The notes under the pieces are model-generated. The model saw only the letters and a list, made by a program, of their open reading frames with translations, was not told the DNA's origin and did no database searches. Of a stretch of DNA of 64,000 nucleotides, positions 1,118-17,239 are shown in pieces. Every line of letters begins with the position of its first letter. The first letter of the stretch is position 1. This DNA comes from an uncultured Candidatus Saccharibacteria bacterium (GTDB taxonomy: Bacteria > Patescibacteriota > Minisyncoccia > Phycocordibacterales > Zambryskibacteraceae), in the NCBI GenBank assembly GCA_964509605.1, contig CAZDXF010000002.1:89514-153513 (forward strand). Direction: 5' to 3'. The translations under genes and the position numbers were made by a program.

Positions 1118-1774
1118 ATGGCCGAAAAGGAAAAAAAAGAGGCACCAAAAAAAGTAGATCCAATAGAAGAGTTTGCTTTTCTATTTTTAATACTACTCAT
1201 CTTAAGTGCGCTCGTGGCGAGATTTGTAGCTGTTTTCAACTCAACTGATTTTAATGAGGGAGGTTTTCTTTCCTCTGTTTCTGCTTTTTGGGACAACCTT
1301 TTGCCAACCTTGAAAATGATTTCTTTGGTTGTTTCTGGCCTGTCTGTGGCGGGAATTATTTACAGCTTAAAACAGCTTACAGCTTTGAATACTGCGCTCA
1401 ACGCTTTTTATGGCGTTGTGCCGACTGCTTTAACAGATGAATCTCAAACATATCTTCCAAAAAACAAGAAGTGGGATAGGGTCTTGGTCCATATGGCCTC
1501 AAACAATCCAAGCGATTGGAAACTTGCCATTTTGGAAGCGGACATAATGCTTGAAGAGCTTTTGGATGCGTCTGGATATAAGGGAGAGACAATGTCGGAC
1601 AAACTTAAGAGTGTGGAAAAAAGTGATTTTGAGACAATAGAAGCGGCGTGGGAAGCGCACAAGATTAGAAATACGATAGCTCACGAGGGTTCAGATTTTA
1701 CTTTAACAAGACAGGAGGCAGATAGAGTTATAAATCTTTACAGAATTGTTTTTGAAGAATTTCATTATATTTGA
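1118..1774 (+). CDS. Hypothetical membrane protein with C-terminal HEPN-like (DUF4145-like) region
   Basis: N-terminal hydrophobic helices; C-terminal AHKIRNTIAHEG matches the Rx4H HEPN-type motif; starts 3 nt after gatA stop. Confidence 0.45.
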   Translation: MAEKEKKEAPKKVDPIEEFAFLFLILLILSALVARFVAVFNSTDFNEGGFLSSVSAFWDNLLPTLKMISLVVSGLSVAGIIYSLKQLTALNTALNAFYGVVPTALTDESQTYLPKNKKWDRVLVHMASNNPSDWKLAILEADIMLEELLDASGYKGETMSDKLKSVEKSDFETIEAAWEAHKIRNTIAHEGSDFTLTRQEADRVINLYRIVFEEFHYI

Positions 1775-1868
1775 TATTTGCTACTGATGTAGCGAATATC
1801 AAACATTGAATAGTAAAAGGTGAGTACTTGAAATCTCTTAAAAATAAGTATAGTGTACTTGAGTATAT

Positions 1869-1939
1869 AGCGGGATGGAGTAACAGTAACTCACGAGGCT
1901 CATAACCTCGGGACCCAGGTGCGAATCCTGGTCCCGCAA
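1869..1939 (+). tRNA. tRNA with CAU anticodon (Met or Ile2/lysidine type)
   Basis: Cloverleaf: D-stem GAGT/ACTC, anticodon stem CGAGG/CCTCG with loop CTCATAA, T-arm CCAGG-TGCGAAT-CCTGG, acceptor AGCGGGA/TCCCGCA with A1:A72 mismatch. Confidence 0.65.
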
Positions 1940-1950
1940 CAAGGAGAAAA

Positions 1951-1979
1951 CCGCCCCGCGTTTGCGCGGGGCGGTTTTA
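1951..1979 (+). terminator. Rho-independent terminator
   Basis: CCGCCCCGCG-TTTG-CGCGGGGCGG followed by TTTT. Confidence 0.7.
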
Positions 1980-2000
1980 TTAGGGTATATTGTTATCCAT

Positions 2001-2073
2001 GTCGGGATAGCTCAGTCGGTAGAGCACGGGACTCATAAGCCCGGGGTCGTGGGTTCAATCCCCACTCCCGACA
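2001..2073 (+). tRNA. tRNA with CAU anticodon (elongator Met or Ile2)
   Basis: GTCGGGA acceptor paired with TCCCGAC; D-arm GCTC-AGTCGGTA-GAGC; anticodon loop CTCATAA; T-arm GTGGG-TTCAATC-CCCAC; discriminator A. Confidence 0.85.
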
Positions 2074-2097
2074 CAATATTTATTAAATCTGTATTTA
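2056..2097. repeat. 42-bp direct repeat copy 1 (tRNA 3' end plus 25 bp downstream)
   Basis: caatccccactcccgacacaatatttattaaatctgtattta, identical to 2205..2246; also part of AT-rich palindrome TTAAATCTGTA-TTTA-TACAGATTTAA. Confidence 0.9.
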
Positions 2098-2204
2098 TAC
2101 AGATTTAATTGGGGATTGAAAGCTGGAGCGATGTTTCGATAGCAATCGGAACCGCGAGGCGGGGTCGCGGGGGAGGCGAGCGACGGCGAGCCGAAACCTG
2201 TGAC

Positions 2205-2246
2205 CAATCCCCACTCCCGACACAATATTTATTAAATCTGTATTTA
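2205..2246. repeat. 42-bp direct repeat copy 2 (orphan duplicate of tRNA 3' end)
   Basis: Exact 42/42 identity to 2056..2097; the two copies flank a 107-bp GC-rich insert (2098..2204) with terminal 8-bp inverted repeat ggggattg/caatcccc. Confidence 0.9.
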
Positions 2247-2362
2247 AGGGGCGCAATCTTTTAAATTTTTGGTTAGTAAATACTCCTGTCACTTGATATT
2301 ATGTATTTGTGCCTATATATAGGAAAGTTAACAAGGACTTTTTTAAAGTATGGACGGCCGAA

Positions 2363-2971
2363 ATGGCTTACGTTTTAGGCTTCTTTGTTGCAGATGGAAA
2401 TATGATGGAGACAAATCGTGGAACATATTTTATTTCCTTTTATTCTGCAGATAGAGAGCTTATTCAGACAATCAAGAAGGCAATGGGTTCTGGGCATAAA
2501 ATTTCCGAAAGAAAAAGTGATATTGGTTCTGTATTTCGTATCCAAATAGGCAGTAAGGAAATATTTGAAGATTTTTTAAATTTAGGTCTGTGTCCGAGCA
2601 AGAGCCATCGTATTGAAATACCTAATGTTCCAAGAAAATTTGTGAAAGATTTTATTAGGGGGTATTTTGATGGAGATGGAAATGTTTGGGTTGGATATGT
2701 AAATAAGTATCGTAAAAAACCAACCCTTACAATACAAGTTTCTTTTACAAGTGTATCTTATGATTTCTTGTCTAATTTTCTGGGGCTTTTATGTTGTGGT
2801 GGAGTGAAGGGGGGTTACATTTATAGATCGAAAACAAAAAATTTTAGCAGGATATCTTTGAGTATTTTGGACTCTTTGAAACTTTATGAATTAATGTATA
2901 ATGTGCCTTGCCACTTGTTTTTAAAGAGGAAAAAGGTGGTTTTTGAAAAATTCATAAAAATGCGATCGTAG
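2363..2971 (+). CDS. LAGLIDADG-family homing endonuclease (double-motif)
   Basis: Two LAGLIDADG-type motifs: LGFFVADGN near the N-terminus and IRGYFDGDGNVWV mid-protein. Likely ATG start at 2363 (track start 2309 is an upstream GTG). TAG stop at 2969-2971 lies within positions 8-10 of the downstream tRNA. Confidence 0.8.
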   Translation: MAYVLGFFVADGNMMETNRGTYFISFYSADRELIQTIKKAMGSGHKISERKSDIGSVFRIQIGSKEIFEDFLNLGLCPSKSHRIEIPNVPRKFVKDFIRGYFDGDGNVWVGYVNKYRKKPTLTIQVSFTSVSYDFLSNFLGLLCCGGVKGGYIYRSKTKNFSRISLSILDSLKLYELMYNVPCHLFLKRKKVVFEKFIKMRS

Positions 2972-3243
2972 CTCAACTGGTTAGAGCACCCGCCTGTAGA
3001 TAATTGCAGCTTTTTATCGAAAGATAGATTGAAACTCTCTGGGATAACGGTGAAGGCTAAGTTTACCAATCGGTGAATATGCGAATACCGTGGGAACTCG
3101 TCATTATTAGACGAGAGCGCCGTAGAGACTAGATACCAGAGCGCCTAACAGGAAACTTAAGGTGAAGATATAGTCCACGCCATTATGAAAATAGTGGATC
3201 ACGTGCACGCGGGAGGTTGCCGGTTCAAGTCCGGTCGGTCGCG
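2962..3243 (+). tRNA. tRNA-Asp (anticodon GUC) interrupted by a 208-nt group I intron in the anticodon loop
   Basis: 5' exon GCGATCG-TA-GCTC-AACTGGTTA-GAGC-A-CCCGC-CTGT (2962-2997). 3' exon CAC-GCGGG-AGGTT-GCCGG-TTCAAGT-CCGGT-CGGTCGC-G (3206-3243). Spliced loop CTGTCAC gives anticodon GTC; G73 and G10 fit Asp identity; the G3:C70 pair argues against Ala. Confidence 0.8.
2998..3205 (+). ncRNA. Group I self-splicing intron (compact, tRNA-type; no internal ORF)
   Basis: 5' exon ends in U pairing with an IGS GCAG (P1); intron ends in G. R-like GAGACTAGA and exact S-element consensus AAGATATAGTCC form P7 (GACTA/TAGTC). A GAAA-tetraloop hairpin TATCGAAAGATA is present. Confidence 0.8.
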
Positions 3244-4845
3244 CATCAAGGGACGGAGTGAGGCGAAAGCTTCACTCTGTCTTTGTTTATCAAGGGTTTT
3301 TTCCAGTTCTAACCGTTTATATTCTTTTTCTATCGCTGGATAGTGATTTTGAATTGGAATAAACCATTCGTTAGGCAAAATAACGAGATTTCCGTCTTTT
3401 AGCGTGTAGTTCTGACCGAGTGCAGACAGTATCTCTCTTTTGGTCTCAAGACCGCCTTTACGGAACTCATTGAGAGCGTGGCAGGCAAAGATAAAGGTTT
3501 TCTCTGTGAGCTCAATCCAGTTCTCGGCTCTTTTCTCTGTGTCTCTCATTCTCTGGGATATTTCAGCCATCTGGCTTTGTAGTATTTTTCTTTCCTTCAA
3601 GAACTCCTCATCACTTATAAGCTCTCGGTATCTCATCTTGGTGAGGGTATCAAGCTGTTTTTGAGTATCAGCCAGTGTTTTGTGTTGGGTTTCGTATATA
3701 CGGGTCCTTTCCTCTATTTCCTTATCATTGTTTTTATTGAGTATCTCCAGAGCCCAGTCCTTGAATTGAGGAAGTATGGTTATTTTGGCAATCTCTTTTT
3801 CAATCTCTTCCTCAACTTTGCCTACAGGGACATATTTCTTCTGGGTGCATACGCAACCTTTCTTCCTTCTTGTGCAGTAGTAATACACGAAGGTTTTTAC
3901 TTCTCCTGTTTTCTTTATGATTTTTGTTTTCTCAATGGCTGTAATTGCACTCCCGCACTCGCCACACCTTATAATCCCAGTAAAAGGAAACTCGTGGGTC
4001 TTTGGTCTCGGCTTACCATCTCTACCAAGAAGCATTTGAACTCTGTCATACTCCTCAAGAGTAATCATTGGTTTGTGTTTACCTTGATATGTCCGTCCTC
4101 TGTATTGGAACAAGCCCGCATAGAATGGGTCTGTGAAGATGCGGTAAATAGTGCTTCTTGAAAGAGGTTTGCCACCCCTTCTTTTCATTTTCCTTGTTTG
4201 AAGACCCCACTCGTTAGTTGCGATTTCAAGTATTTTTGGAGGTGTATAGTTTCCAGTAAGCATAAGGTCCCACATCTTTCTGATGAGAGAAAATCTCTCT
4301 GGGTCATCTGTGATGTAGTTTTCTCCTCGGGCTTCTATTTTGGTATTCAAATATCCCAAAGGAGCTAAAATGGGAGCTTGTCCTTTCTCAAGCTTGCTAT
4401 CAATACCTCTTCGCACACCTTTCTTTAGGTCCAAGATAAACTGATTAGCAGAACCGCTCTCTACACTCAAAAGGAGAGCGTTGTCATCTGGTTTATATTC
4501 ACGATTGATTGTTCGGATAGATTTGATGATGCTTTGTTGTAGGAGCCATTGGATTTTTCCGCTATCAACTGGATTTCTGGATAAGCGGTTAATCTCCCAG
4601 CACAGGATGCCGTTCGCTTCTCCCGTCTCAATCCTCCTCAACATTTCATCAAAGATGGGTCGGTTATTTGGTTGCTTTGCAGATTTTGCCTCCGAAAGTA
4701 TTTCAACAATTTCCAGTCCAGCATCTTTGGCTAGTTTTGAAATATGATTTGTCTGGTCTCCTATGGATTGGACCTGTCTATCTTCGCTCTCTGATGATTT
4801 ACGAGCGTAGAGAAAGTATTTTATTGTTTCAGTGTCATTTTTCAT
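3199..4845 (-). CDS. Large serine recombinase (phage-type serine integrase)
   Basis: N-terminal resolvase catalytic domain (YARKSSESEDRQVQSIGDQ with catalytic Ser); recombinase domain; zinc ribbon CGECGS...C..C; C-terminal coiled coil. The last ~15 codons are antisense to the tRNA 3' exon. Confidence 0.85.
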   Translation of the reverse strand: MKNDTETIKYFLYARKSSESEDRQVQSIGDQTNHISKLAKDAGLEIVEILSEAKSAKQPNNRPIFDEMLRRIETGEANGILCWEINRLSRNPVDSGKIQWLLQQSIIKSIRTINREYKPDDNALLLSVESGSANQFILDLKKGVRRGIDSKLEKGQAPILAPLGYLNTKIEARGENYITDDPERFSLIRKMWDLMLTGNYTPPKILEIATNEWGLQTRKMKRRGGKPLSRSTIYRIFTDPFYAGLFQYRGRTYQGKHKPMITLEEYDRVQMLLGRDGKPRPKTHEFPFTGIIRCGECGSAITAIEKTKIIKKTGEVKTFVYYYCTRRKKGCVCTQKKYVPVGKVEEEIEKEIAKITILPQFKDWALEILNKNNDKEIEERTRIYETQHKTLADTQKQLDTLTKMRYRELISDEEFLKERKILQSQMAEISQRMRDTEKRAENWIELTEKTFIFACHALNEFRKGGLETKREILSALGQNYTLKDGNLVILPNEWFIPIQNHYPAIEKEYKRLELEKTLDKQRQSEAFASLRPLMRDRPDLNRQPPACT

Positions 4846-4984
4846 ATTAAAAACCCGAAAGGGACGGTCTGGTTGACCCAGATTACTTGCTCCAAAGGAG
4901 TAGCAATACTGGCAGACCGCCCCTCTCGGGTCAGTATTGTAATAAAAAATCCTTTGAACGCTTGTATCTGGGTCAACATAATCA

Positions 4985-5590
4985 TTATATCAATTTTTTA
5001 CGCTCAAGTTGAGTAAAGTGTCTATAAGATAAACTGGCTTGACCATATAGCTTATCAAGCTGTCTTTGTCTTCTGGTTGGCTTGCCTCTGTAATAAGGGC
5101 GTTTAATCTGGCTATTAAGCTCGTCAATTTTCTGCTCAAGAGTAAGAACATTAAATAAATGGAACATATTGTATCGGCGGTTCACATTTCTTGAGTTATA
5201 TGTGAGCTCGTAGCAATGGCGACAGGCAAAGTAATCTCCATCCTTGTAGAGAGTGCCTACTCGCTTGCCACAATATACGCCGTTTTTATACCACGGGCAG
5301 ATAAACCAGTATCGTTTGCCTCCGTATCGGCAAGGGGTAGAGGCGAGAGGTATCTTGTAGTCAAAGTTTTTCTTCTCGCCAGAGTAATTGTCTGTTTGGG
5401 TGTAATGGATACGGAGATAGTCATCACCATTCATTACAGACACCTCAATACCTACACTACTTTTGTTTTCACCCCACATACCGCTTCTGGTCCAAGTAAT
5501 CGTCCCAGACCTCCAGCCACAGAAGTAATCGTGCTTTTTGAGAAAGCTGGTGGCTATCTTTTTTACATCGTCTGCTTCGCTCTTGCTCAT
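4985..5590 (-). CDS. Hypothetical Cys-rich (putative zinc-binding) protein
   Basis: ORF of 201 aa with CxxC-like clusters (CPWYKNGVYCGK..CRHC); co-oriented with the integrase. Confidence 0.4.
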   Translation of the reverse strand: MSKSEADDVKKIATSFLKKHDYFCGWRSGTITWTRSGMWGENKSSVGIEVSVMNGDDYLRIHYTQTDNYSGEKKNFDYKIPLASTPCRYGGKRYWFICPWYKNGVYCGKRVGTLYKDGDYFACRHCYELTYNSRNVNRRYNMFHLFNVLTLEQKIDELNSQIKRPYYRGKPTRRQRQLDKLYGQASLSYRHFTQLERKKLI

Positions 5591-5716
5591 ATTCTTGCCG
5601 AAATCATTTGAGATTTACTCTTGTTATTTTTCTGGTAAAACGACCTTTTGTCTTTATGTTGCTTATTATTTTATCTATTCTGGCTCTTCCGATAAAATCC
5701 GATAACTTCTACAGTT

Positions 5717-6280
5717 TTACGAAACGAACCCATTTTCATTATCTATGGAGATGTCCGCATCTAATGCGAGGGGAGGTAAGACCTTCTCTCCATTTCTGGC
5801 TGACTGTAAACGCTGGAGCTCGTGTAGGGCTTTATACAACCTATTCTCAATCGCTATCTCATATCGCAAATATACGCTGGATAGCTTTTCCACCTCATCA
5901 TCGTGGATGCGTGGGATGTAGCCCTCATTTTCTACTATCGTTTCCGTTAAGCTTGGTAATAGTTCTTTGATTACTACCTTCCTGCGGTTAAGCTTGGACT
6001 GCATATACTCATTTTCTGCCTTTGCTACTCTGTGCAGTTTTAGGTAGTAAACTCCTATGCGGTCCACAAGCATCTTCTCCAACACTCCTACTGGGCTGAA
6101 ATGGTCATTGAGGCGTTCATTGATTTCCTTGTAGTAATCTCCTTCATATTCAGATACCAGTTCGTTCAGTATGCCGTGTTTGATGGCATTGTATTTGCTT
6201 ACAGCTTTACCTTCATCGGTTTTGACTCCGCCTTTTTTGGCGTTCTCTCGGTTAGCTTCAATCTGTTTTTGTGTTGTCAT
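5717..6280 (-). CDS. Hypothetical protein
   Basis: 187-aa ORF, co-directional, abuts the primase gene stop. Confidence 0.4.
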   Translation of the reverse strand: MTTQKQIEANRENAKKGGVKTDEGKAVSKYNAIKHGILNELVSEYEGDYYKEINERLNDHFSPVGVLEKMLVDRIGVYYLKLHRVAKAENEYMQSKLNRRKVVIKELLPSLTETIVENEGYIPRIHDDEVEKLSSVYLRYEIAIENRLYKALHELQRLQSARNGEKVLPPLALDADISIDNENGFVS

Positions 6281-6291
6281 ATTCTTATTTT

Positions 6292-8475
6292 TTAACTGTT
6301 ATTAAACTGTTTATCAGTATCATTTTCTTCCTCTGTGTTTTTCACCCCACTCTCTATTTCACTATTTTTATTGGTTTCAGAAAGCTGATATAGGGAGGAG
6401 GGGAAAATCATCATTTTGCGTTTGTCATTTGGGTCCTGTTCTTGAACGATAAGCCCTGCTGTCTCCAGCATAGGAAGTATCTGTTGTCGTAGCTGATGGC
6501 TATCAAGCATCCTTCCATACACCTCAAAATGTTTCTCAAGGAGCTCTTGGCGGGATAATCCAAGCTTGCCTGTAAGCTCTTCAAATACTTCGTTTCTGCC
6601 ATCATTCTTCGCCTCCCAAGCGGGTAGGATGACCTCTTTGTAGAGATTGTAGATGTAGGGTGGCAGGTTGAGCTCTTGGCTGACGGCTATCTTGTCCCAG
6701 AGCTTGAAAGCTTGATTGATGTCATCTTCATTGGCGATGATTGTGGACCCACTTCTTTCTCTCCACCAGACATTGAGAAGTGCAAACGATTTTATGAGAG
6801 ACAGAAGACGTTTGATGTCTCTTTGGTGTCTTGGTTTGAGCGTCTTGTTATTCCTCAAGAACCTTTCCTTGATTGTTTCGTGTGAGGCGATGTTTATATC
6901 TCTGATACCTTCCAGTTTGATGGCACGGATACGCTCTTTGAGTAGGGCTCGGTCTGGGTTTTCATCAAGCCAACTCACAAAACTCTCACTGTCTGCCTCT
7001 TTTCTGATTGTAGCGGTAATGCCTTGTTGTATTTTGTCTTGATTAACTTCTGGAGAAAGAAGTAAAAATCTCGTTGCTTCTTGCTCATCAATTTTTAGCC
7101 CTGCGGTGCAGAAGATGACCGATGGATAACCTCGCAAAAGAATGTTCTTTGTTTTCATCCCGAACTTCTGCGATTTATCAGTTATCTTCAAAGTAATCTC
7201 TTTCTTGTCGTGAGATAGGAGCGGTCTCAATCTGGCGAGGAGCTCATTGTGTGGCTGGTCCAGAAAGATAAGTATCTTGTGGGATAGGTCTACTAAGTAG
7301 CCATTCTTCTCTTTGTCGTATTGACCCGCATCGTGGAAGAAGGCGGTTGGAGAGCAGTAAGCAATCTCCATCACATCGTCTTGTGGGAATAGGCGGGCAA
7401 TCTCGGTTGGTATGTAGCTTTTACCTGTTGATGATGGGGCGTTGTAGCTGATGTTGAACTGCGAGTTCTCTGTATACGCTGATAGCTGACAGAGAAATGT
7501 CGCCAGCTTATTTTCTGCATCGTATTTAATGGTAAGACCGAGTGTCTCAATGAGTTTCTCGGAACTTATCGGAGCGAACTGGGCGGTATCAATTTTCTCT
7601 GGATACTCTTTTGCATATTTCTCAAACAAGTCATCAGCGGACCTTCCGAGTTTTATGATGTAATCGGTAATGTCTCCGTGTTCTCCAACTTCTTCTGGTA
7701 GCGTAATGATATAGGTCTCGTTTCCACCATTTTCCACCATTTTCGCCACACGCTCCGCTCCTTTCTTTCCAGCTTCGTCATTGTCAAAGCAGATGTAGAC
7801 CTTACTACCGTTCAGTATCTTTTTAACCCATTCTTCCTTGAAGGTCATCGCTCCGTGGGTAGAAGTGATTGCTGGCACTCCTTTAGCAAGTAGTAGTAAG
7901 CGGTCTAGCTCACCCTCACAGATTACGATTATTTTGTTCGCTTTTTCCGCAATCTCCCAATCATAGAGCTGTGCTTCTACTCCTTTCGGATAAGTTATTT
8001 TTTCATTGCCGAAAGCTGGGTCCTGTCGCAATTTGAAGAAGACATAATTGCCATAGACATCCTTAATAGGGATGGTAATCCACGGTTTGCGATAGAACTG
8101 TCCGTAGCCGATTTTGTATTCGTCTATCAGTGCATCAGTAAGTCCTCGTTTATGTAGATATTCTCTTATGCTTGGAGGTAGTGCTTTATGGCACTTCTCT
8201 ACAAGTTCTGCTGTAAATACATTTGTCTTGCGGGTTCTGGCTTCTGCTGTGTCGCCGAAATGTTTAGCTAATGTAGACAGGTTTCCTTTCTCTCCGCATT
8301 TCTTACAGTCATATTGTCCTGTCTCTGTGCTGAAATACAGGTGAGCTTCTTCGCCCTTACTATCCTTGTCGCAATCGTTGAAGAGGCATTTACTAATAAG
8401 CTCCTTACCACTCTCACGAAAGGGGATGCCTTTCTCGGTGAGATATTCTCGGATGTTAGTTTTAGTTAGGTTCAT
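6292..8475 (-). CDS. DNA primase-type replication protein (DnaG-like Zn finger + TOPRIM + P-loop NTPase)
   Basis: N-terminal CLFNDCDKDSKG..H..YDCKKCGEKG zinc-binding motif; TOPRIM IIVICEGELD...ICFDNDEAGKKG; Walker A APSSTGKSY. Confidence 0.75.
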   Translation of the reverse strand: MNLTKTNIREYLTEKGIPFRESGKELISKCLFNDCDKDSKGEEAHLYFSTETGQYDCKKCGEKGNLSTLAKHFGDTAEARTRKTNVFTAELVEKCHKALPPSIREYLHKRGLTDALIDEYKIGYGQFYRKPWITIPIKDVYGNYVFFKLRQDPAFGNEKITYPKGVEAQLYDWEIAEKANKIIVICEGELDRLLLLAKGVPAITSTHGAMTFKEEWVKKILNGSKVYICFDNDEAGKKGAERVAKMVENGGNETYIITLPEEVGEHGDITDYIIKLGRSADDLFEKYAKEYPEKIDTAQFAPISSEKLIETLGLTIKYDAENKLATFLCQLSAYTENSQFNISYNAPSSTGKSYIPTEIARLFPQDDVMEIAYCSPTAFFHDAGQYDKEKNGYLVDLSHKILIFLDQPHNELLARLRPLLSHDKKEITLKITDKSQKFGMKTKNILLRGYPSVIFCTAGLKIDEQEATRFLLLSPEVNQDKIQQGITATIRKEADSESFVSWLDENPDRALLKERIRAIKLEGIRDINIASHETIKERFLRNNKTLKPRHQRDIKRLLSLIKSFALLNVWWRERSGSTIIANEDDINQAFKLWDKIAVSQELNLPPYIYNLYKEVILPAWEAKNDGRNEVFEELTGKLGLSRQELLEKHFEVYGRMLDSHQLRQQILPMLETAGLIVQEQDPNDKRKMMIFPSSLYQLSETNKNSEIESGVKNTEEENDTDKQFNNS

Positions 8476-8677
8476 CTTGTTTAATGTTGTTTATAAGTTG
8501 TTGTTGGTCCTTTGAGATTTGCTCGTATTCTTTGTGGGTCATCGGCGTGTAGACGATAGACATCAACCGCAAGAGCTTGATGCCTTTGTCATAAGCATCT
8601 TCTCTGCTGATTTCTTTTCCAAAATGGCTCTTGTAGAGAGCTTGGAACTTTGCGATGTCTTCGTCTGCCAAAACCAT
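8462..8677 (-). CDS. Hypothetical small protein
   Basis: 71-aa ORF whose stop overlaps the primase start by 14 nt. Confidence 0.35.
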   Translation of the reverse strand: MVLADEDIAKFQALYKSHFGKEISREDAYDKGIKLLRLMSIVYTPMTHKEYEQISKDQQQLINNIKQDEPN

Positions 8678-8679
8678 AA

Positions 8680-9099
8680 CTATTCTGAATAGAGTTTATT
8701 TTTCAGTGCCTTGAGATGGTCAAAGAACGACCTTGCTTTGACTTCTAATCGGTCCGAGAAGTAGCGGTCTGCCACCTCTTCAATCCCATCTGCTTTCTGG
8801 AAGATAAAGAGGGCTTTTCTTGGGTTCTCTTTGTCCACGGATAAAAGCACAAAACCCGCACACAAAAGTGCGGTGGACACGCCGAGGTCATAGGTGGTCC
8901 ATACCACCGATGGGTCATCAAGTGGAATGTATCTCCACTCCTCGTCTCCAGATGACTTCCTTACTTTCTTATTTGTCATAGTAATTTGAGGTTTACTGAT
9001 AAACCAAAAAAGCCAACAAGTGTCGTCTTGTCGGCGTTGTGCGTTTGGAGATAAACAAAAAACCAAAGCAACAAACGCCAGTTCAAAACTGACATTCAT
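8680..9099 (-). CDS. Hypothetical protein with N-terminal hydrophobic/signal segment
   Basis: 139-aa ORF; MNVSFELAFVALVFCLSPNA signal-like start. Confidence 0.35.
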   Translation of the reverse strand: MNVSFELAFVALVFCLSPNAQRRQDDTCWLFWFISKPQITMTNKKVRKSSGDEEWRYIPLDDPSVVWTTYDLGVSTALLCAGFVLLSVDKENPRKALFIFQKADGIEEVADRYFSDRLEVKARSFFDHLKALKNKLYSE

Positions 9100-9260
9100 T
9101 GCTTTGGTCTCTTTAGTCGCCCATTAGACGGGCGAATTACCTATAAATCCTCTGCAAGTTTTTCCACCCACCATTCCCATAAAACGGGTATGCTTGGGTT
9201 TCAAAGATATTTAGCTTTCAAGGTGCATAGTAATTATAGGTGCTCTTGATTGCGTGTCAA

Positions 9261-10121
9261 CTACTTTGCTATCGTCTTGAAATCTACCCCTCCTTTCTGG
9301 GAGATGCTAAAAACATTTTTAGTTCTACATTTATGGCAAGTTTTATGTCCTCCTGCTTGAAATTCATCTAACAACTTCATAATTTCCTGTTCAGAAGTAT
9401 AAGTCCCAAGCCATCTACTACACTCTACACATCTCCAAATAAGCTCTTTTCTATCTTTTAATAAAGCTTTCACACCCTCTTCGTAGATTTCCTCTATCGT
9501 CTTTTTAACAGTATAGAAAATATCTTCCAACTTCTCTTTGTTGTTGATTACTATAAAGCTAGGAAAATAACCTCCTCCTGATGCATAAACCTCTCCGCTT
9601 TCATCCTTCTCAAAATCTACTTCAAGAGTTTCTTCAATCTGAATAGCTCCAGAAAAATCTGAAATTTTTCTTAAAATCTCATTACCGTATTTCTTTTCAT
9701 TAAATTTTTTAATATCGGCATTTCCTCCTGATATTAAGCTTCCTAAAATTTCTATAAGCTCCCTTCTGTATACTTCGTCTGAAAGCTTAAATCCATAGAG
9801 GTTATTTTTTGCGTCTGATATAAACCTGACTATCTCGCTTTTTTTCGGAGTTATATCAAAAAACTTTATCTTATCGTAGTCCTCACGGTGCGTGTCTTTC
9901 CAGTTCTCATATTCCAAAACCCCCTGCCTTTCCAAAGATAGAAATCCTTGAGCAATGTCAGATTTAGCCATCTCACCAAATAGTTTTGGAAGAAATTGGT
10001 CAGAGAGCGTGAGTGTCTCATTAGGTTCGGTGGGAAGGAAGATAACCAGATTAGGTCTTGTCTCTATAAACTCCAATATCTTTTCAGCCAGAAAGAGGTT
10101 TCTATTTTGAGTAATTGTCAT
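9261..10121 (-). CDS. Hypothetical protein with C-terminal zinc ribbon
   Basis: 286 aa; C-terminal CVECSRW...CHKCRTKN; divergent from the R-M operon. Confidence 0.4.
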   Translation of the reverse strand: MTITQNRNLFLAEKILEFIETRPNLVIFLPTEPNETLTLSDQFLPKLFGEMAKSDIAQGFLSLERQGVLEYENWKDTHREDYDKIKFFDITPKKSEIVRFISDAKNNLYGFKLSDEVYRRELIEILGSLISGGNADIKKFNEKKYGNEILRKISDFSGAIQIEETLEVDFEKDESGEVYASGGGYFPSFIVINNKEKLEDIFYTVKKTIEEIYEEGVKALLKDRKELIWRCVECSRWLGTYTSEQEIMKLLDEFQAGGHKTCHKCRTKNVFSISQKGGVDFKTIAK

Positions 10122-10289
10122 AGTAATTTTCTCAAATTTACCCCTTTTGATGACACTTCACAATAGTGAGTAGGAAGAGGGGCAAAAATACCTTAAATCT
10201 GCTATTCTTTCATAGTAAGAGAAAAGACCATTTACGAAGCCATTTTTAGGTAAATCGTGGATGTCTACTGCGGAAACATTACAATTACT

Positions 10290-12092
10290 ATGAAAAACGA
10301 ATATCAAAAAGTAGAACAAGCAAAAGGTCGTCCGCTTCTCCAGTGGGTAGGCAAGAAACCACTTGAGAGTGTGCAGTTCTATCCCGCCCAAGAAATTGAA
10401 GTATATGGCGACAAGACCGCAAAGGATTTCAATAAACTATTTTGGGGAGATAATCTCCAAGTGCTCTCTCATCTTCTCAAGGACTATCGTGGAAAAATTG
10501 ATTTGATATACATTGACCCTCCGTTTGATAGCAAGGCAGATTATGTAAAAAAAGTAAAAGTTCGTGGGGAGCAGGTTGAAGGCATTGGACAAGGTCTACT
10601 TGAGGAAAAACAATACTCTGACATTTGGGAGAGAGATGAATACCTCCAATTTATGTATGAGCGATTATCGCTAATGAGGGAACTTTTATCTGAAACAGGC
10701 AGTGTCTATGTTCATATGGACGAGAAACGCTCCCACTATGTGAAAATCATCCTTGATGAAGTATTTGGTATTGAGAACTTCCAAAGAGAGATTGTGTGGG
10801 ATATTACAGTTTTGTCTGGTTTTAAGACGCAGGCAAATAACTGGATACGAGGACACGACACGATACTTTTTTACTCAAAATCACCTAACAAAAACTTCAA
10901 TAAACTATTTCTTCCACACCGAAAAGAGTATTTGGACCGTTTTAACAAAAAAGATAAAGATGGACGGCTCTACTTTGATGGACGAGGAGAAATTGTGTAT
11001 TTGGATGATGTCGTAAAAAAAGGTAAAAACATTGGAGATGTATGGAGTGATGTTATGTCCTTCCAACAAATACCCACTGCAAAAGAAAGAGTTGATTATC
11101 CTACTCAAAAACCTGAAGCTTTGCTTGAACGCATCATCAATGCTTCGTCAAAGGAGGGTGATATTGTTGCAGATTTTTTCTGTGGTTCTGGAACTACTCA
11201 AGTGGTGGCTCAAAAGCTCGGACGAAGATGGATTGGGTGCGACATAAACAAGGGAGCCATTCAGACATCTACAAAGCGTCTCAATCAAATCATTGAGGAA
11301 CAGCAGAGAGAGAAAATAAAGAACTTCAAGGGTTCTTACGGCTTCAAGGTTCTCAATGTGAACGATTATGATGTGTTCAAGAATGAGCTTATTGCGAAGG
11401 ATATTGTTATGGAGATGTATGGAGTGGAGCAAATAAAGCGAAGCTACTTTGACGGGCTGATGGGTAGAGATTTGGTGAAGATAATGCCGATGAACAGAGT
11501 GCTCAACAAAATGGATATAAGGAGTATCTTGAAAAACATCCAAGACAACATAAGCAACTTCACTGTGAAGACGAAATCAAAAGCGAAGGAAGCCGTATAC
11601 GAAGAGAAAGTCCGCATTATCTGTTCTGGAGTTGAATATGATGTCCCTCACTTCTTGAGAAAGGAAAATAAAACTGGAGTAGTGGTGGAAATCAACGATG
11701 TGCTCTCTGCTACGAAGGAACTTGTTTTCAAGGAATACCCAGAGTCAAAAATTGAGCTCAAGGTTAAGAATAAGAAGCTCTCTGTTGATATAAAAGAGTT
11801 CTACTCTCCGCTTCTGATGAGAAAGCTTGAGATTGAAAACCAGAAGGCGCTTAAAAAAGAAAGCCAGACGAAGGTAAAGGACTTCAAGCAAATCATTGAT
11901 AGCGTAGCTATTGATGTGGACTACAACGGCAAGCTGTTCAACGCAGAGATAATGGACCTGCCAGACAAGAAGGAGGTTATCAAAGCCAAGTATTCTTGGG
12001 ATTATCCAAAGAAGGGCAAATATACTGTCGCCATAAAAATTGTTGATGTGCTCGGAGAAGAATACTTTGAGACATTTGATGTAAACGCATAA
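10290..12092 (+). CDS. Type III restriction-modification methyltransferase (Mod), beta-class N6A/N4C MTase
   Basis: Motif IV IDLIYIDPPFDS precedes motif I DIVADFFCGSGTT (beta-class order). Likely ATG at 10290 (track start 10257 is GTG). Immediately followed by a Res-like gene. Confidence 0.8.
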   Translation: MKNEYQKVEQAKGRPLLQWVGKKPLESVQFYPAQEIEVYGDKTAKDFNKLFWGDNLQVLSHLLKDYRGKIDLIYIDPPFDSKADYVKKVKVRGEQVEGIGQGLLEEKQYSDIWERDEYLQFMYERLSLMRELLSETGSVYVHMDEKRSHYVKIILDEVFGIENFQREIVWDITVLSGFKTQANNWIRGHDTILFYSKSPNKNFNKLFLPHRKEYLDRFNKKDKDGRLYFDGRGEIVYLDDVVKKGKNIGDVWSDVMSFQQIPTAKERVDYPTQKPEALLERIINASSKEGDIVADFFCGSGTTQVVAQKLGRRWIGCDINKGAIQTSTKRLNQIIEEQQREKIKNFKGSYGFKVLNVNDYDVFKNELIAKDIVMEMYGVEQIKRSYFDGLMGRDLVKIMPMNRVLNKMDIRSILKNIQDNISNFTVKTKSKAKEAVYEEKVRIICSGVEYDVPHFLRKENKTGVVVEINDVLSATKELVFKEYPESKIELKVKNKKLSVDIKEFYSPLLMRKLEIENQKALKKESQTKVKDFKQIIDSVAIDVDYNGKLFNAEIMDLPDKKEVIKAKYSWDYPKKGKYTVAIKIVDVLGEEYFETFDVNA

Positions 12093-12096
12093 TCAT

Positions 12097-14640
12097 ATGG
12101 ATAGTTTTTTCTTACAAAATATCCAGAAACAAGTAGCTGACTGGCGAGCTGGTGGCTACGATGGCGTGCAGAAAGAGACAGAGACGATACTAAACCACAT
12201 CCGAAGGGTTGCTTTCTTGCACGAGCCACAGATAGAGGCGTTGGAGACATACATCTACCTCAAAGAGATAGTTGGCAACAAGCCATCCGTTGAGGTGTTC
12301 AAGAAGTCCTTTGAAAGTGAGTTGGATTTTATCCGTGCTCTGGGTCTTTCTGATAAAGAGGCGTTTGAACTTGCTTACGATAAAAAGAAGGACGAAAAGA
12401 TACAAGCAATTCTGGATGAGAAGTTCGGGACCTCCGACTATGCAAATCAGGTCTACGCTCTCACTATGGGTTCGGGCAAAACGATTTTGATGGCGGTGAT
12501 GATGCTGTATGATTTTGTTCTTTCCTTCTATCACAAAGATGACGAACGCTTTGCCAAGAACGCCCTTATTTTTGCTCCAGATACAACAATCATAGAGAGC
12601 TTGAAAGAGATAAAGACATTTGATTACTCACGGGTTCTGCCGAGAGAGTATGAGAACATCATTTTGAATATAAAGTATCACTATCTTGAAAGCACAGACA
12701 CCGCTCTGGCTCCAGTCGGAAACTATAATGTCATTGTCTCTAACTCACAGAAAATAATCCTCAAGACAAGAAATGGTAATGGCGATAATCATTCAGCACG
12801 GCTTTTTGGAGACAGAAATGAGATGGAGAAACGAGAGGTTGAAAATATGCGTTTGCAAGCCATTCGCCAACTCTCATCTCTCCAGATTTTTGTAGATGAA
12901 GCTCACCACTCATATGGAAAGACACTTGAGGGAACTTTGAAGAAGACGAGACAAACGATTGATTATCTTCACAAGCATACTCCTCTTGTTTCCGTTATAA
13001 ACCTCACTGGAACGCCTTATGTAAACAATAAGATGATTTCCGATGTGGTCTATCACTTCGGTCTTAAAGCAGGTATTGAAAAAGGTATTTTGAAGCAGGT
13101 CCGCATTTTGGATTATGGAACAGTAAGGTCCCAGAAGTTCGTTGAGGAAGTCGTTGATACCTTCATTTCTGAATACGGGACGAAACGGCTTGAAGGGCGA
13201 TTGCCGAAGATAGCTTTCTATGCACCAAGCATTAGTGATTTGCGAGAGGATTTGAAGCCGAAGCTGGAGCGTATCCTTTCTGAAAAAGGTATGTCTACAC
13301 AATCCATTTTGGAGTATCACACCGAAGCAGAAGATAATGCCGATGATTTCAAACAGCTTGATACAGCCGAAAGCAAAAAGCAGTTTATTCTTCTTGTCGG
13401 CAAAGGGACCGAAGGATGGAACTGCCGTTCTCTTGTCTCTGTGGCTCTGTATAGGAAGCCAAAGAGCACAATCCTTGTCCTACAATCAACTACAAGATGT
13501 CTGCGTGCCATTGGAGATAACTCCACTCGTGCCAGCATCTTCTTATCAAAAGACAATTATAAAATCCTTGATAAAGAGCTCAAGAATAACTTTGCCTCAA
13601 GCATCAGTGAGCTGAATGCTCAAGACCAGAAAATGGTTGAACACACTCTTGAGGTTGAGAAGCGGACTACCATCAAAGTAAAGAAGGTTCTCAAGGATAT
13701 TTTGGCTGTTAAGGAAACAAGCCCAGAGAAAATAAAAATTGATTTCAAGAAGTTTGATGCTGGACAGTATCAATCATTTGTAAGTGAGGGAGGTGTATTT
13801 ATCGGAGACGAAGGTAAGGCAAGATATTCAGAAGCTCGTGCTAAAGGAAGAATAAAAGATAGAGCAGATTTTACCTTTTATGAAATAGCCGAAATAATAA
13901 ACCGCTATACTCATCTACCTTGTTTATCCATAGAAGCTATTATCACTGGGAGTGGAAAGAAGCGTGAGCAATTTGTTGAGATGGTAAACGAGACCCCAGC
14001 TCTGCTTACATTTGTTATTCAAGAAATACTCAACAGTGCTTTCAAATATGAAGAGAAGACCGAAACAGTGGAAGAAGAGCTTGAGCTGACTAAACTGTTT
14101 CCATTCAAAATCAGTGTTCAGCAAGGCAGAAGTGGACTTGTAGTATATAGAGAAGCCGAAGCAGAAGAAGGGCGAAAGGGTCGTCTTGGTTTCCACATCA
14201 ATCCATACGCATTTGATAGCGGTGATGAGAAGGATTTGTTCAGATACTTGAGGGATGTTCTTGATAAGAAGGAGGTTATCAAGGATATTTATTTCACAGG
14301 TGCTCGTGTTTGCTCGGACCCAAGCAGAACTGATTTCTATTTTGAATACTGGAGCCCAGAACAAAACAGAGTAGCCAGATACTTTCCAGATTTTCTTATT
14401 GAGACAAACAAACGCTTTATTGTTGTAGAGACAAAGGGTGGAGATGAGAAAGCGGATTATGAGGCAAATAAGAAATCATATAAGGGTAAAGTGGAAGATG
14501 TAAGAAATGAAGTGTTTGCGAAAGAGCTTGGATTTAACGAGTTTCAGAGCATAAATAAAAACTTTGAGTATCGCATTATCTTTGATGCTACTCTCCAGCG
14601 AGAACAGGTGAGATTGTATGAGGAGCTAATAAATAGATAA
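12097..14640 (+). CDS. Type III restriction enzyme (Res): SF2 helicase + C-terminal PD-(D/E)xK nuclease
   Basis: Walker A TMGSGKT, DEAH box FVDEAHHS, motif LTGTPY; C-terminal YFPDFLIETNKRFIVVETKG nuclease motif. Confidence 0.8.
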   Translation: MDSFFLQNIQKQVADWRAGGYDGVQKETETILNHIRRVAFLHEPQIEALETYIYLKEIVGNKPSVEVFKKSFESELDFIRALGLSDKEAFELAYDKKKDEKIQAILDEKFGTSDYANQVYALTMGSGKTILMAVMMLYDFVLSFYHKDDERFAKNALIFAPDTTIIESLKEIKTFDYSRVLPREYENIILNIKYHYLESTDTALAPVGNYNVIVSNSQKIILKTRNGNGDNHSARLFGDRNEMEKREVENMRLQAIRQLSSLQIFVDEAHHSYGKTLEGTLKKTRQTIDYLHKHTPLVSVINLTGTPYVNNKMISDVVYHFGLKAGIEKGILKQVRILDYGTVRSQKFVEEVVDTFISEYGTKRLEGRLPKIAFYAPSISDLREDLKPKLERILSEKGMSTQSILEYHTEAEDNADDFKQLDTAESKKQFILLVGKGTEGWNCRSLVSVALYRKPKSTILVLQSTTRCLRAIGDNSTRASIFLSKDNYKILDKELKNNFASSISELNAQDQKMVEHTLEVEKRTTIKVKKVLKDILAVKETSPEKIKIDFKKFDAGQYQSFVSEGGVFIGDEGKARYSEARAKGRIKDRADFTFYEIAEIINRYTHLPCLSIEAIITGSGKKREQFVEMVNETPALLTFVIQEILNSAFKYEEKTETVEEELELTKLFPFKISVQQGRSGLVVYREAEAEEGRKGRLGFHINPYAFDSGDEKDLFRYLRDVLDKKEVIKDIYFTGARVCSDPSRTDFYFEYWSPEQNRVARYFPDFLIETNKRFIVVETKGGDEKADYEANKKSYKGKVEDVRNEVFAKELGFNEFQSINKNFEYRIIFDATLQREQVRLYEELINR

Positions 14641-14644
14641 AGCT

Positions 14645-15469
14645 ATGGACGAGGAAAAGAAAATAACTAAAAAGAAGGCAGTCATTTATACCATTGTAAT
14701 TGGGGTTGTCGCTTTTATAGCTGGAACTTTTATCGTGGATTACTCGGAATACGAAGAATACGGCTCTTATAGCACTGACAACTGCAATGTTTTAGCTTTT
14801 TCTGTAAACGGCTACTTAAGCACTTATATGCCACAGAACCCAGAAGAGTATATGACAGACATTTCTTCATCAGAGGATATTGTGGATGGCATACAAATTG
14901 CACAAGATGACCCAGATATAAAAGCAGTCATATTATCAGTGGACTCTGGTGGAGGAGATGGTGTTGCTGGAGAAGAGGTTGCTAATGCATTGAAATGGTT
15001 GAGTAAACCCAGTGTCGCAGTGATAAGAGGGTTAGGTGCTTCCTCGGCATATTGGGCATCTACTGGAGCTGACAAGATATACGCATCCAAGATATCCGAT
15101 GTCGGAAGTATCGCTATCACAATGTCTTATCTTGATGAGACAAAAAAGATAGAGCGTGAGGGTTATCAATACACAGAACTGTCATCGGCAAAGTATAAGG
15201 ATTTAGGAGACCCAAGCAGACCTCTAACTGCCGAAGAGAGAGCGATAATAATGTCTGATTTGCAGAAGGCACACAAAGTTTTTGTTGAAAGTGTTTCTGT
15301 AAACAGAGGTTTGGATATAAAAGAGATTGAAAAATTGGCAAACGGGCTGACCTATATAGGCGAAGATGCTTTGAGATATGGGTTGATTGATGAGATTGGA
15401 GATTTTCTATCTGCTAAAAAGTATATTGAGGAGCAAATAGGAGAAAAAGCAGAGATTTGCTGGTATTGA
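14645..15469 (+). CDS. S49-family serine peptidase (SppA/ClpP-like), membrane-anchored
   Basis: N-terminal TM helix; AVILSVDSGGGDGVAGEEVANAL and GLIDEIGDF S49 hallmarks; starts 4 nt after Res stop. Confidence 0.7.
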   Translation: MDEEKKITKKKAVIYTIVIGVVAFIAGTFIVDYSEYEEYGSYSTDNCNVLAFSVNGYLSTYMPQNPEEYMTDISSSEDIVDGIQIAQDDPDIKAVILSVDSGGGDGVAGEEVANALKWLSKPSVAVIRGLGASSAYWASTGADKIYASKISDVGSIAITMSYLDETKKIEREGYQYTELSSAKYKDLGDPSRPLTAEERAIIMSDLQKAHKVFVESVSVNRGLDIKEIEKLANGLTYIGEDALRYGLIDEIGDFLSAKKYIEEQIGEKAEICWY

Positions 15470-15990
15470 TAAACACAATGACAAAACTTTACATACTAAT
15501 TGGAATACTTATTGCTCTCGGGGTTGTAATTGAACTCTTTAGGAGCGGAGGCAAAGAAGAGAGAAGGTATCAATATAAGCAGAAGAACTTTTTTATGTCT
15601 CGGGCAGAGCACGAGTGCTACGATGCCCTTACTATTGCCGTTGGAGAGAAGTATCACATCTTTCCTCAAGTTCATCTGCCGTCAATCGTAGACAATAAGG
15701 TTGTGGGTCAAAATTGGCACGGAGCCTTCCGCCACATAAGCCAGAAGTCGGTTGATTTCGTTTTGTGCGACAAAGCTTACATATCACCGAAACTTGCTAT
15801 TGAGCTTGATGATAGAACTCACGAAAGAAGGGACCGAAAGGAAAGGGATGTTGAGGTTGAGAGGGTCCTAAAGGATGCTGAACTACCTCTTTTGAGATTG
15901 GAAAATCACGGACGATTTAACCCCAGCGAGCTTACTGAAAAAATAAATACCATCCTAAACAATGGTGAAAACAAGGGTGGGGTGAAATAA
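15457..15990 (+). CDS. DUF2726/DUF559-like (Vsr/PD-(D/E)xK-fold) domain protein with N-terminal TM helix
   Basis: Motif pattern VDFVLCD...AIELDDRTH typical of the DUF2726/Vsr-like fold; overlaps the S49 gene by 13 nt. Confidence 0.55.
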   Translation: MLVLINTMTKLYILIGILIALGVVIELFRSGGKEERRYQYKQKNFFMSRAEHECYDALTIAVGEKYHIFPQVHLPSIVDNKVVGQNWHGAFRHISQKSVDFVLCDKAYISPKLAIELDDRTHERRDRKERDVEVERVLKDAELPLLRLENHGRFNPSELTEKINTILNNGENKGGVK

Positions 15991-15992
15991 AG

Positions 15993-16968: not shown

Positions 16969-17053
16969 TGAAATCAAAGGTGGGTATATAGATGGTTGTA
17001 TCATTTCCTCTCTCAAATCCAGTTCTGATGTTGTTCACTAGCCCGCGCAAGCG

Positions 17054-17091
17054 AAAATCCGAGTATCGTGTGATACTCGGATTTTTGTTTT
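17054..17091 (+). terminator. Rho-independent terminator
   Basis: AATCCGAGTATC-GTGT-GATACTCGGATT followed by TTTGTTTT. Confidence 0.7.
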
Positions 17092-17218: not shown

Positions 17219-17239
17219 AATCTGAATTTGTCAGATTAA

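Follow-up and report, generated by a model that had tools for sequence, protein, structure and literature searches.

What is a homing-endonuclease gene doing outside an intron, with its end buried in a tRNA gene whose own intron encodes no protein? A contig of an uncultured Candidatus Saccharibacteria bacterium (CAZDXF010000002.1, positions 89,514–153,513; we call this whole analysed stretch of 64,000 nucleotides (nt) the window) raises this question, as it carries a free-standing LAGLIDADG endonuclease gene that runs into the 5' end of tRNA-Asp(GUC), and the anticodon loop of this tRNA is split by a group I intron. To our knowledge, free-standing LAGLIDADG genes are rare, and collaborative homing is documented only in a few protein-coding genes of phages. 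The answer that we favour, with a probability of roughly 60%, is an intronless or 'collaborative' form of homing on tRNA-Asp, in which carriers would be immune through the intron or through variants of the target, and a mimic of the target in the promoter of the endonuclease gene would serve as its operator.

An apparently intact LAGLIDADG endonuclease

The open reading frame (ORF) lies on the forward strand and comprises 220 codons, from a GTG at 2309 to a TAG at 2969–2971, with an in-frame ATG at 2363 as an alternative start. An earlier note on this DNA had begun the gene at that ATG, which is probably 54 nt too late. We place the start at the GTG because most of the 120 listed homologues are 217–225 amino acids (aa) long and cover 98–100% of the 220-aa query (about a dozen are ~202 aa long, with 90–92% coverage), and because F11, F12, K13 and W15, all encoded upstream of 2363, are nearly invariant in an alignment of 39 sequences.

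Pfam profiles, a check that the same note had proposed, detected LAGLIDADG_3 in two stretches of the product (E = 2.3e-13) and LAGLIDADG_1 weakly. The two motifs that it had pointed out, LGFFVADGN and IRGYFDGDGNVWV, are indeed present in a single chain, and the motifs YVLGFFVADG and IRGYFDGDG are conserved throughout the alignment. Each motif ends in a catalytic aspartate (D29 and D123), and both are invariant in 95/95 family members, so that the missing catalytic acids which the note had named as grounds for doubt are in place. Twenty-seven columns of the 39-sequence alignment are invariant, even though pairwise identity among the 95 homologues drops to 35–40%, and the ORF is intact in 93/95 loci, with one internal stop each in L015 and L082. 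The gene is under purifying selection; synonymous sites are saturated, identity reaching no more than 75% even in the closest pair of endonucleases from these loci.

An AlphaFold2 model of the protein (predicted local distance difference test score (pLDDT) 92.6, predicted template modelling score (pTM) 0.89) has two alpha-beta-beta-alpha-beta-beta-alpha halves, the predicted fold thus being that of a pseudo-dimeric LAGLIDADG enzyme. Its top Foldseek matches in the PDB are all LAGLIDADG enzymes (E down to 6.5e-11), among them I-AniI, I-HjeMI, I-SmaMI, E-DreI, I-Tsp061I, bI3 maturase and I-OnuI, and the nearest solved relative by sequence is I-Tsp061I (PDB 2DCH, E = 2.5e-7). Pfam, homologues and model together mark 2309–2971 as a free-standing gene for a monomeric double-motif LAGLIDADG homing endonuclease, and the protein is apparently catalytically intact and looks like an active enzyme.

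The gene ends inside an intron-bearing tRNA-Asp

The ORF lacks a stop codon of its own. Its last four codons read ATG-CGA-TCG-TAG, and direct reading confirms what had been noticed before, namely that the terminating TAG is supplied by positions 8–10 of tRNA-Asp, the G of the ATG being tRNA position 1. Run with introns allowed, ARAGORN divides tRNA-Asp(GUC) on the forward strand into a 5' exon (2962–2997), an intron of 208 nt in the anticodon loop between U35 and C36 (2998–3205; i(37,208)) and a 3' exon (3206–3244), and the spliced product folds as tRNA-Asp. The intron matches the group I family RF00028 of Rfam with 47.2 bits (gathering score 50, E = 2.7e-10), and direct reading shows that a U precedes the 5' splice site, that the intron ends in G and that its P1 helix (CUGU/GCAG) contains a U.G pair. 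It is also recovered with a profile built from 31 tRNA-Asp introns (nhmmer, E = 1.8e-53), a value that is not independent, since the profile includes the window intron. The intron contains no ORF, and the endonuclease ORF lies outside it, directly upstream of the intron-bearing tRNA and ending at tRNA position 10, as the earlier note had read it; the Rfam and ARAGORN placements rule out both an endonuclease inside the intron and an intron that reaches upstream.

A protein search returned 771 relatives, from Parcubacteria or Paceibacteria wherever they were named, with the best 59% identical to the window protein, and a scan that covered each GTDB species with one genome found that at least 522 species representatives encode a relative. 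For a comparison of loci we took the best 80 genome loci of these at least 522, together with four metagenome loci, making 84. Their order is tRNA-Met(CAU), 2–580 nt, ORF and tRNA-Asp(GUC), with a tRNA-Met on the forward strand upstream of the endonuclease in most loci. In the window this conserved left neighbour of the endonuclease cassette lies at 2001–2074 on the forward strand (ARAGORN, Rfam). Once an island of ~14 kilobases (kb) is taken out, the window also shares with its relatives the wider order GatA, a 218-aa protein, tRNA-Met, ORF, tRNA-Asp, two tRNA-Thr, PrfA, FtsE, FtsX and PyrG.

The overlap of ORF and tRNA-Asp recurs in ~75 of these 84 independent loci, and is therefore no chance pattern. 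It measures 10 nt, with the TAG of tRNA positions 8–10, in ~55 loci; in ~14 the ORF enters the tRNA in another frame and meets a TAG deeper inside, with overlaps of 15, 21 or 23 nt; and six loci have their own TAA or TAG, 1–75 nt upstream of the tRNA. Because stops are borrowed from the tRNA in different frames, the proteins have C-termini such as '...KMRx' and '...GRSSTG'. The cassette as a whole, made up of a target-like motif, a predicted leaderless promoter and the ORF between tRNA-Met and tRNA-Asp, has its right edge at exactly tRNA position +1 in nearly all loci, and the ORF therefore borrows a tRNA-internal TAG as its stop. With low confidence, we add that an RNase P cut at position 1 would leave a message without a stop codon, which could further limit the enzyme.

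These comparisons change the picture given by the earlier note. A degraded gene without conserved neighbours, which it had allowed for, is not what we found, as the relationship with the tRNA is conserved across loci. Its suggestion of a mid-gain or mid-loss state gives way to a stable and widespread architecture, present in at least 522 species and, in about half of the cases, combined with an intronless tRNA-Asp. The stop inside the tRNA is likewise no feature of the intron allele, because it is equally present with an intronless tRNA-Asp (L002). LAGLIDADG genes have been described in rRNA introns of the candidate phyla radiation (CPR; PMC11270868), and group I introns in CPR tRNAs (PMC8172020); our search of the literature on CPR LAGLIDADG genes and tRNA introns found no description of the tRNA-Asp cassette.

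Between the ORF end and the functional tRNA-Asp, L029 (3663–3740) and L064 (1075–1400), and more weakly L046 and L083, contain at least one copy of a 60–75 nt unit in which 14 nt repeating the start of the tRNA (TTGCGGYTGTAGCT) come first and GTTTTGG comes next. A tandem duplication could account for these units, as could a small insertion at tRNA position 12, and they are possibly the footprint of a repair event.

The predicted promoter contains a motif resembling tRNA-Asp

Alignment of the 110 nt upstream of the start codons revealed a family block, (T)GGTTAG-N8-CCTGTCAC-GnGr-TATAAT-N6-ATG/GTG. Its first part, GGTTAG-N8-CCTGTCAC, corresponds in letters and exact spacing to the tRNA-Asp stretch that reaches from its D-loop (G18 G19 U U A G) into the anticodon loop (C31–C38), and holds the intron insertion site CCTGT^CAC uninterrupted; the likeness extends to a T at -3 and to a G at +1 and +3. 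In the window the motif, GGTTAG-TAAATACT-CCTGTCAC, occupies 2271–2292 on the forward strand (GGTTAG at 2271–2276, N8 at 2277–2284, CCTGTCAC at 2285–2292), with the letters and spacing of tRNA-Asp positions 18–39. It had no place in the earlier note, and is identical to the spliced tRNA-Asp of the window at 16 of 22 positions. A -10-like hexamer, TATTAT, follows at 2297–2302 on the same strand, so that the motif sits 4 nt upstream of the -10 box and the box ends 6 nt before the GTG.

At most two mismatches in the 14 specified positions of the motif were found in 42/92 upstream regions of the family, compared with 10/3000 background windows (0.3%). A TATAAT-like hexamer ends 5–9 nt before the start in 62/92 loci, at exactly 6 nt in 42, against a background of 2.3%, and a -10 box in this position predicts a leaderless mRNA. 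There is also a second layout, in which the start codon directly follows ...ACTGTCAC and the -10 box falls within N8. A generic two-hexamer sigma-70 scan called no promoter upstream of the ORF, because the -35 element is weak; the promoter assignment rests on the conservation of the -10 box across the family.

The spacer of a sigma-70 promoter is unconstrained in sequence. Since CCTGTCAC lies in just this spacer, we read the block as a protein-binding site, which, by analogy with I-TevI, is probably an operator for self-repression of the endonuclease. In its resemblance to the putative homing site and in its position over the gene's own promoter, the motif looks like an operator of the I-TevI type; otherwise it would be left over from the founding insertion or from a recognition site of the endonuclease.

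A DnaA-box-like nonamer (TGTGGATAA, TTATCCACA or a close variant) stands 5–30 nt upstream of the GGTTAG motif in ~9 loci (L027, L028, L030, L031, L037, L068, L099, L120 and L130) and apparently marks the cassette's left end, as in L099 (...GTGTGGATAACTAGTTAGG).

Intact target-like sites are depleted in carriers

If the promoter block mimics the target, carriers of the endonuclease should be without an intact target in tRNA-Asp, and a depletion of this kind is what we observed. The carriers included the 80 genome loci that best match the window endonuclease, and endonuclease-free alleles came from a scan of metagenomes with a neighbouring protein as anchor (see below). The strict core, GGTTAG-N8-CYTGTCAC, is present without interruption in 14/25 endonuclease-free tRNA-Asp genes compared with 4/91 endonuclease-linked ones. 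Among the 91 linked alleles, the site is split by the intron in 42, none of which has the strict or the looser core (TAG-N8-CYTGTCAC) uninterrupted, and it is altered in 45 of the 49 that are intronless. The looser core is uninterrupted in 21 of the 25 endonuclease-free and 17 of the 49 linked intronless alleles, and the difference between these two classes is significant for both definitions (Fisher test, p = 1.4e-5 for the strict and 6.6e-5 for the looser core). Carriers thus include both intron-plus and intron-minus alleles (42 and 49), for which the earlier note had advised looking in relatives.

In the window, the left 19 base pairs (bp) of the putative 22-bp target (GGTTAGAGCACCCGCCTGT, 2979–2997, forward strand) lie within exon 1 and are parted by the intron from CAC at the start of exon 2 (3206–3208), which would form the right 3 bp. 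The canonical left part, GGTTAG-N8-CYTGT, which the intron severs from the remainder, is kept in 30/42 intron-bearing carrier alleles versus 4/49 intronless ones (p = 2e-10). Variants in the intronless carriers include GGTTAGTAGC, with a one-base insertion, which is absent from all 25 endonuclease-free alleles, as well as GGCTAG or GGCTAA with an ATCCC stem, GGTTAAC and GGTTCAG. With the intron profile, the tRNA-Asp intron was found in 44/95 carrier loci and in L158, a locus with a remnant of the endonuclease gene, and in none of the 25 endonuclease-free alleles.

An unusual type of tRNA-Asp, with the T-arm GTGGGGTCAGCACCCAT, the T-loop GGTCAGC instead of the usual TTCRANT and a short D-loop (CAACGGTAGAGC), occurs both with and without the endonuclease (L092, L097, L099, L105, L120, L038, L054 and L161).

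The endonuclease is gained and lost together with its tRNA-Asp allele

As the first sample had been chosen through the endonuclease, we drew a second sample of 80 metagenome loci through the neighbouring 218-aa protein instead. The ORF is present in twelve of these, in each case between tRNA-Met and tRNA-Asp, and missing from ~28; in most of the latter, tRNA-Met is followed by a spacer of 42–140 nt with a promoter-like TTGATT-N17-TAATTTGTA and then by tRNA-Asp. Four 'empty' loci (L158, L161, L146 and L156) retain a C-terminal remnant of the endonuclease ('...LFLKRK..VFERF..'). In L158, a 315-aa methyltransferase-like ORF (5610–6557) stands in the place of the endonuclease, and the last ~30 endonuclease codons survive upstream of an intron-bearing tRNA-Asp; this is a gene replacement at the endonuclease site, in which the intron was kept and the endonuclease gene lost.

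On a tree of GatA, presence and absence of the endonuclease are interleaved, with 15 Fitch parsimony changes over 67 taxa (19.9 expected for random labelling); the gene is absent from 24 of the 67, near relatives among them. The GatA proteins of L099 (with the gene) and L117 (without it) are 91% identical, and the DNA of the two loci is 79% identical across 5.5 kb. Their homology breaks a few bases past tRNA-Met, which is the left edge of homology in close relatives, and resumes ~36 nt beyond tRNA-Asp, and their tRNA-Asp genes belong to different sequence types. Because the break spans both genes and the tRNA types differ, we conclude that the ORF and tRNA-Asp were exchanged as one block. Other pairs show the endonuclease tree to be incongruent with that of the hosts: L099 and L115 are 81% identical in GatA and 40% in the endonuclease, L032 and L091 83% and 40%, and the nearest match of the L099 endonuclease, at 75% identity, belongs to another lineage. 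Endonuclease identity and GatA identity correlate too weakly (Mantel r = 0.25 in one comparison, r = 0.16 in another) to speak for vertical inheritance, in a test that is limited by saturated divergence.

The endonuclease gene is gained and lost repeatedly among close relatives, together with the linked tRNA-Asp allele. Patchy presence, degenerate copies and an incongruent tree are the marks of a mobile gene, and the position of the ORF, outside any intron or intein and adjoining a conserved gene that is its putative target, with flanks swapped between L099 and L117, is that of the Seg/Mob type. The earlier note had suggested that the enzyme could drive mobility of the intron or of the locus; the comparative data indicate that it does so for the locus, and they also link it to the intron, which was found exclusively beside the endonuclease gene or beside its remnant.

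Two candidates were set aside in the course of this comparison. A vertically inherited, domesticated gene, as first read from the conserved synteny, was demoted by the empty alleles, the remnants and the incongruence. L085, the closest relative by the 218-aa anchor, which shares the GCGATCG acceptor stem, was rejected as a clean empty site, having a ~3-kb serine-recombinase island between tRNA-Met and tRNA-Asp.

A homing model for tRNA-Asp and its alternatives

In the homing model that we favour, the enzyme would recognise ~22–27 bp of the tRNA-Asp gene, TGGTTAG-N8-CCTGTCAC(GnG), from the D-loop to the anticodon loop, a stretch that would include the group I intron insertion site CCTGT^CAC. 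It would cut genomes that have the plain tRNA-Asp allele, ~20–30 bp from its own insertion point, and repair from a carrier donor, with homology provided by the conserved tRNA-Met and by tRNA-Asp and sequences downstream, would copy the nearby ORF and the donor's tRNA-Asp allele by co-conversion. Carriers could be immune by either of two routes, the first being a group I intron that has no ORF and splits the site, as in the window ('collaborative' or trans homing), and the second an altered D-arm or anticodon stem (GGTTAGTAGC, GGCTAG, GGCTAA, GGTTAAC, the ATCCC stem and others). The target-like promoter motif would let the protein repress its own transcription, as I-TevI does, unless it is a relic of the founding insertion.

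More tentatively, and at somewhat less than even odds, these parts may form a three-part selfish system that co-evolves on one essential tRNA gene, spread across hundreds of species of the ultra-small CPR bacteria, with an arms race shaping tRNA-Asp. If so, the unusual diversity of the D-arm and anticodon stem of Paceibacteria tRNA-Asp, and its intron, would be products of this arms race, and the locus would be a living intermediate toward endonuclease-carrying mobile introns.

Several observations weigh against the homing model. The two samples of alleles were drawn differently, and the counts are phylogenetically non-independent; restricted to the anchor sample, the contrast weakens (Mann-Whitney p = 0.014). 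An uninterrupted site is kept by 4 carriers under the strict definition and by 17 under the looser one, so that immunity is not absolute or the definition of the site is imperfect, and a 'CGGTAG' type of D-loop is present in all three allele classes. The intron alters only the last 3 bp (perhaps 6–7) of the proposed site, ~9 bp off-centre, and LAGLIDADG introns are usually located at the cleavage centre. The centre of the promoter motif (N8) is itself TATAAT-like, so part of its conservation may reflect promoter function, and ~25/92 loci lack the motif and are apparently read through from tRNA-Met. Near-identical endonucleases in distant hosts were not seen among these loci (maximum 75%), and transfers are therefore not demonstrably recent; the GatA tree, moreover, is a neighbour-joining tree of ~355 aa.

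An alternative that we consider unlikely is classical insertion-site homing, in which the enzyme would recognise the empty junction between the promoter or leader of tRNA-Asp and tRNA positions +1 to ~+11 and insert there, the intron and the D-arm variants being passengers and the motif only a promoter. Such an enzyme would account for a cassette whose right boundary is exactly tRNA +1 in nearly all loci, for empty alleles in which a semi-conserved leader (TTGATT-N17-TAATTTGTA...aTT, joined to GCGG) adjoins the conserved tRNA 5' end, and for the swapping of cassette and tRNA-Asp allele together. However, the copy of the D-loop-to-anticodon-loop sequence at exact spacing in the promoter spacer would be left unexplained, as would the depletion of plain D-loop and anticodon sequence in carriers, and conservation is weak in the left half of the junction, which in L099 is wholly replaced.

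We also regard it as improbable that the protein is a domesticated LAGLIDADG with a host function, either as a maturase for tRNA group I introns or as a DNA-binding regulator of the tRNA operon, and is kept by host selection and not by homing. Against host selection stand the dispensability of the gene, which is absent from 24/67 taxa, near relatives included, with at least 15 changes of state, its remnants and pseudogenes, and a tree incongruent with that of its hosts; its strong conservation, the intact ORF in 93/95 loci, the always identical locus and the lack of near-identical copies in distant hosts speak for domestication. Also in its favour, I-AniI, which is bifunctional, and the bI3 maturase are among the structural neighbours, the tRNA-Asp intron was found nowhere but beside the gene or its remnant, and several other tRNAs in these loci are intron-bearing. 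Yet maturase-only proteins such as bI3 have lost the catalytic aspartates, which are both kept here in 95/95; the tRNA-Asp intron is absent from half of the carriers, and L158 retains the intron after losing the gene. The protein may have a dual role as endonuclease and maturase.

An inactive relic, that is, an old insertion inherited vertically and now decaying without present activity, would fit the two internal stops, the four remnants and the weak but positive correlation of endonuclease and GatA divergence (Mantel r = 0.25), but is very improbable in the face of 27 invariant residues and of catalytic residues retained at such low identities, of a conserved promoter and putative operator, of patchiness and incongruence, and of target depletion in carriers.

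Relation to known homing systems

For every element of the homing model there is a precedent in phages. Collaborative homing is known from the free-standing F-CphI and the ORF-less psbA intron of cyanophage S-PM2, and from the T4-like mobE and the nrdB intron (primary work by Zeng et al. 2009, Bonocora and Shub 2009, and Wilson and Edgell 2009; reviewed in PMC3984707 and PMC2790892). As in these two systems, the putative target in tRNA-Asp includes the intron insertion site, the intron would shield the carrier, and endonuclease and intron would be inherited together by co-conversion. Unlike them, the present system has a LAGLIDADG enzyme in place of an Endo VII-like or HNH one, its putative target is a tRNA gene on a cellular chromosome and not a protein-coding gene of a phage, the ORF abuts and overlaps that gene ~20–30 bp from the presumed cut, and half of the carriers would rely on target variants in place of the intron.

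SegB, a free-standing GIY-YIG endonuclease in the tRNA cluster of phage T4, cuts a tRNA intergenic region (PMC2330249, PMC2988022). Our gene resembles SegB and the other Seg and Mob enzymes in being free-standing within a tRNA cluster; those enzymes cut non-carriers and spread with flanking markers, and the same may hold here, as may immunity of carriers through polymorphism of the target. It differs from SegB in its LAGLIDADG type, in its bacterial chromosomal location, in the fusion of the ORF with the tRNA's 5' end, and in a predicted site inside the tRNA. In I-TevI, an operator that resembles the homing site (15/20) overlaps the enzyme's own promoter and mediates autorepression (Edgell et al. 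2004; PMC2988022). The present cassette likewise has a homing-site-like sequence over its own promoter, with 16/22 matches in the window and 14 specified positions conserved across the family, whereas the enzyme belongs to a different family, the motif has a -10-like TATAAT at its own centre, and binding and repression are predicted from sequence resemblance and position. With the intron-encoded monomeric enzymes of archaeal and CPR rRNA introns, such as I-Tsp061I (PDB 2DCH), those of the I-DmoI type and those of CPR rRNA insertions (PMC11270868), the protein shares a length of ~200–220 aa, the double motif and the fold; unlike them, it is encoded outside any intron or intein, has a sequence identity of only ~19% and occupies a tRNA leader and not an rRNA.

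Under the homing model, the enzyme would work like a free-standing Seg/Mob endonuclease in collaboration with an intron, and would differ from those systems in the LAGLIDADG type, the bacterial host, the tRNA target, the fusion of ORF and tRNA, the alternative immunity by target variants and the spread over hundreds of species. If the homing model holds, a chromosomal version that targets a tRNA, replicated in hundreds of species and sampled in nature in all its allelic states, would be a natural experiment on the partnering of endonuclease and intron, on the escape of hosts through variation of a target within a structural RNA, and on the means by which such enzymes keep their toxicity in check. 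The frequent interruptions and odd shapes of tRNA-Asp in Paceibacteria would also find an explanation, which bears on tRNA annotation and on estimates of CPR genome completeness, and the known monomeric meganucleases would gain a small (220 aa) family whose specificity varies naturally.

Neighbouring features and minor observations

On the other side of tRNA-Asp, where the earlier note had placed a serine integrase, a large serine recombinase (Resolvase, Recombinase and Zn_ribbon_recom in Pfam) is encoded at 3199–4845 on the minus strand and overlaps exon 2 by ~45 nt. It is a neighbour and no part of the endonuclease system, standing at the left end of the ~14-kb island (~3245–17239), which is integrated at the 3' end of tRNA-Asp. 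Past this island, synteny with L002 resumes at tRNA-Thr (17240/17507), followed by PrfA, FtsE and FtsX. A search at the far end of the island for an attachment (att)-type copy of the tRNA-Asp 3' end found no repeat of at least 14 nt; a long att repeat is not expected for a serine recombinase. The island also encodes a 727-aa Toprim primase-like protein (6292–8475, minus strand) and, on the plus strand, ORFs of 177 aa (15457–15990) and 263 aa (16177–16968). In L085, a similar serine recombinase (1550–3259, minus strand) overlaps tRNA-Met genes instead.

ARAGORN, with introns allowed, places a 180-nt insertion after U36 in tRNA-Thr(GGU) of the window (17240–17495). A U before it, a terminal G and a core-like stretch AAGATACAGTC suggest that it is probably a divergent group I intron, although Rfam gave no match for it at E<=0.01. 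Similar insertions were called by ARAGORN in tRNA-Thr(GGU), tRNA-Met, tRNA-Arg(GCG), tRNA-Pro(GGG) and tRNA-Leu(CAA) of relatives.

Next to tRNA-Met, the window contains a perfect direct repeat of 42 nt (2056–2097 and 2205–2246), made up of the last 19 nt of the tRNA and 23 nt downstream. The two copies flank a GC-rich insert of 107 nt (2098–2204), in which GCGAGGCGGGGTCGCGG is found and whose last bases, ...CTGTGAC, immediately precede the repeated tRNA 3' end; within it, TGGGGATTG (2110–2118) is complementary to CAATCCCCA of the 42-nt repeat. Rfam gave no match here. The insert motif recurs with a duplicated tRNA 3' end after tRNA-Asp in L001 (~5000–5230) and after tRNA-Met in L076 (~2750–2900) and L144 (~7970–8130). 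These features suggest an element directed at tRNA T-loops, either a miniature one or the remnant of one that had integrated.

Finally, L002 holds three palindromic copies of a ~140-nt element (146–298, 2240–2384 and 6769–6911) that match RF02625 (WsnRNA46) of Rfam on both strands with 42–49 bits, under the gathering score of 65, and that are probably an intergenic repeat resembling a miniature inverted-repeat transposable element (MITE).

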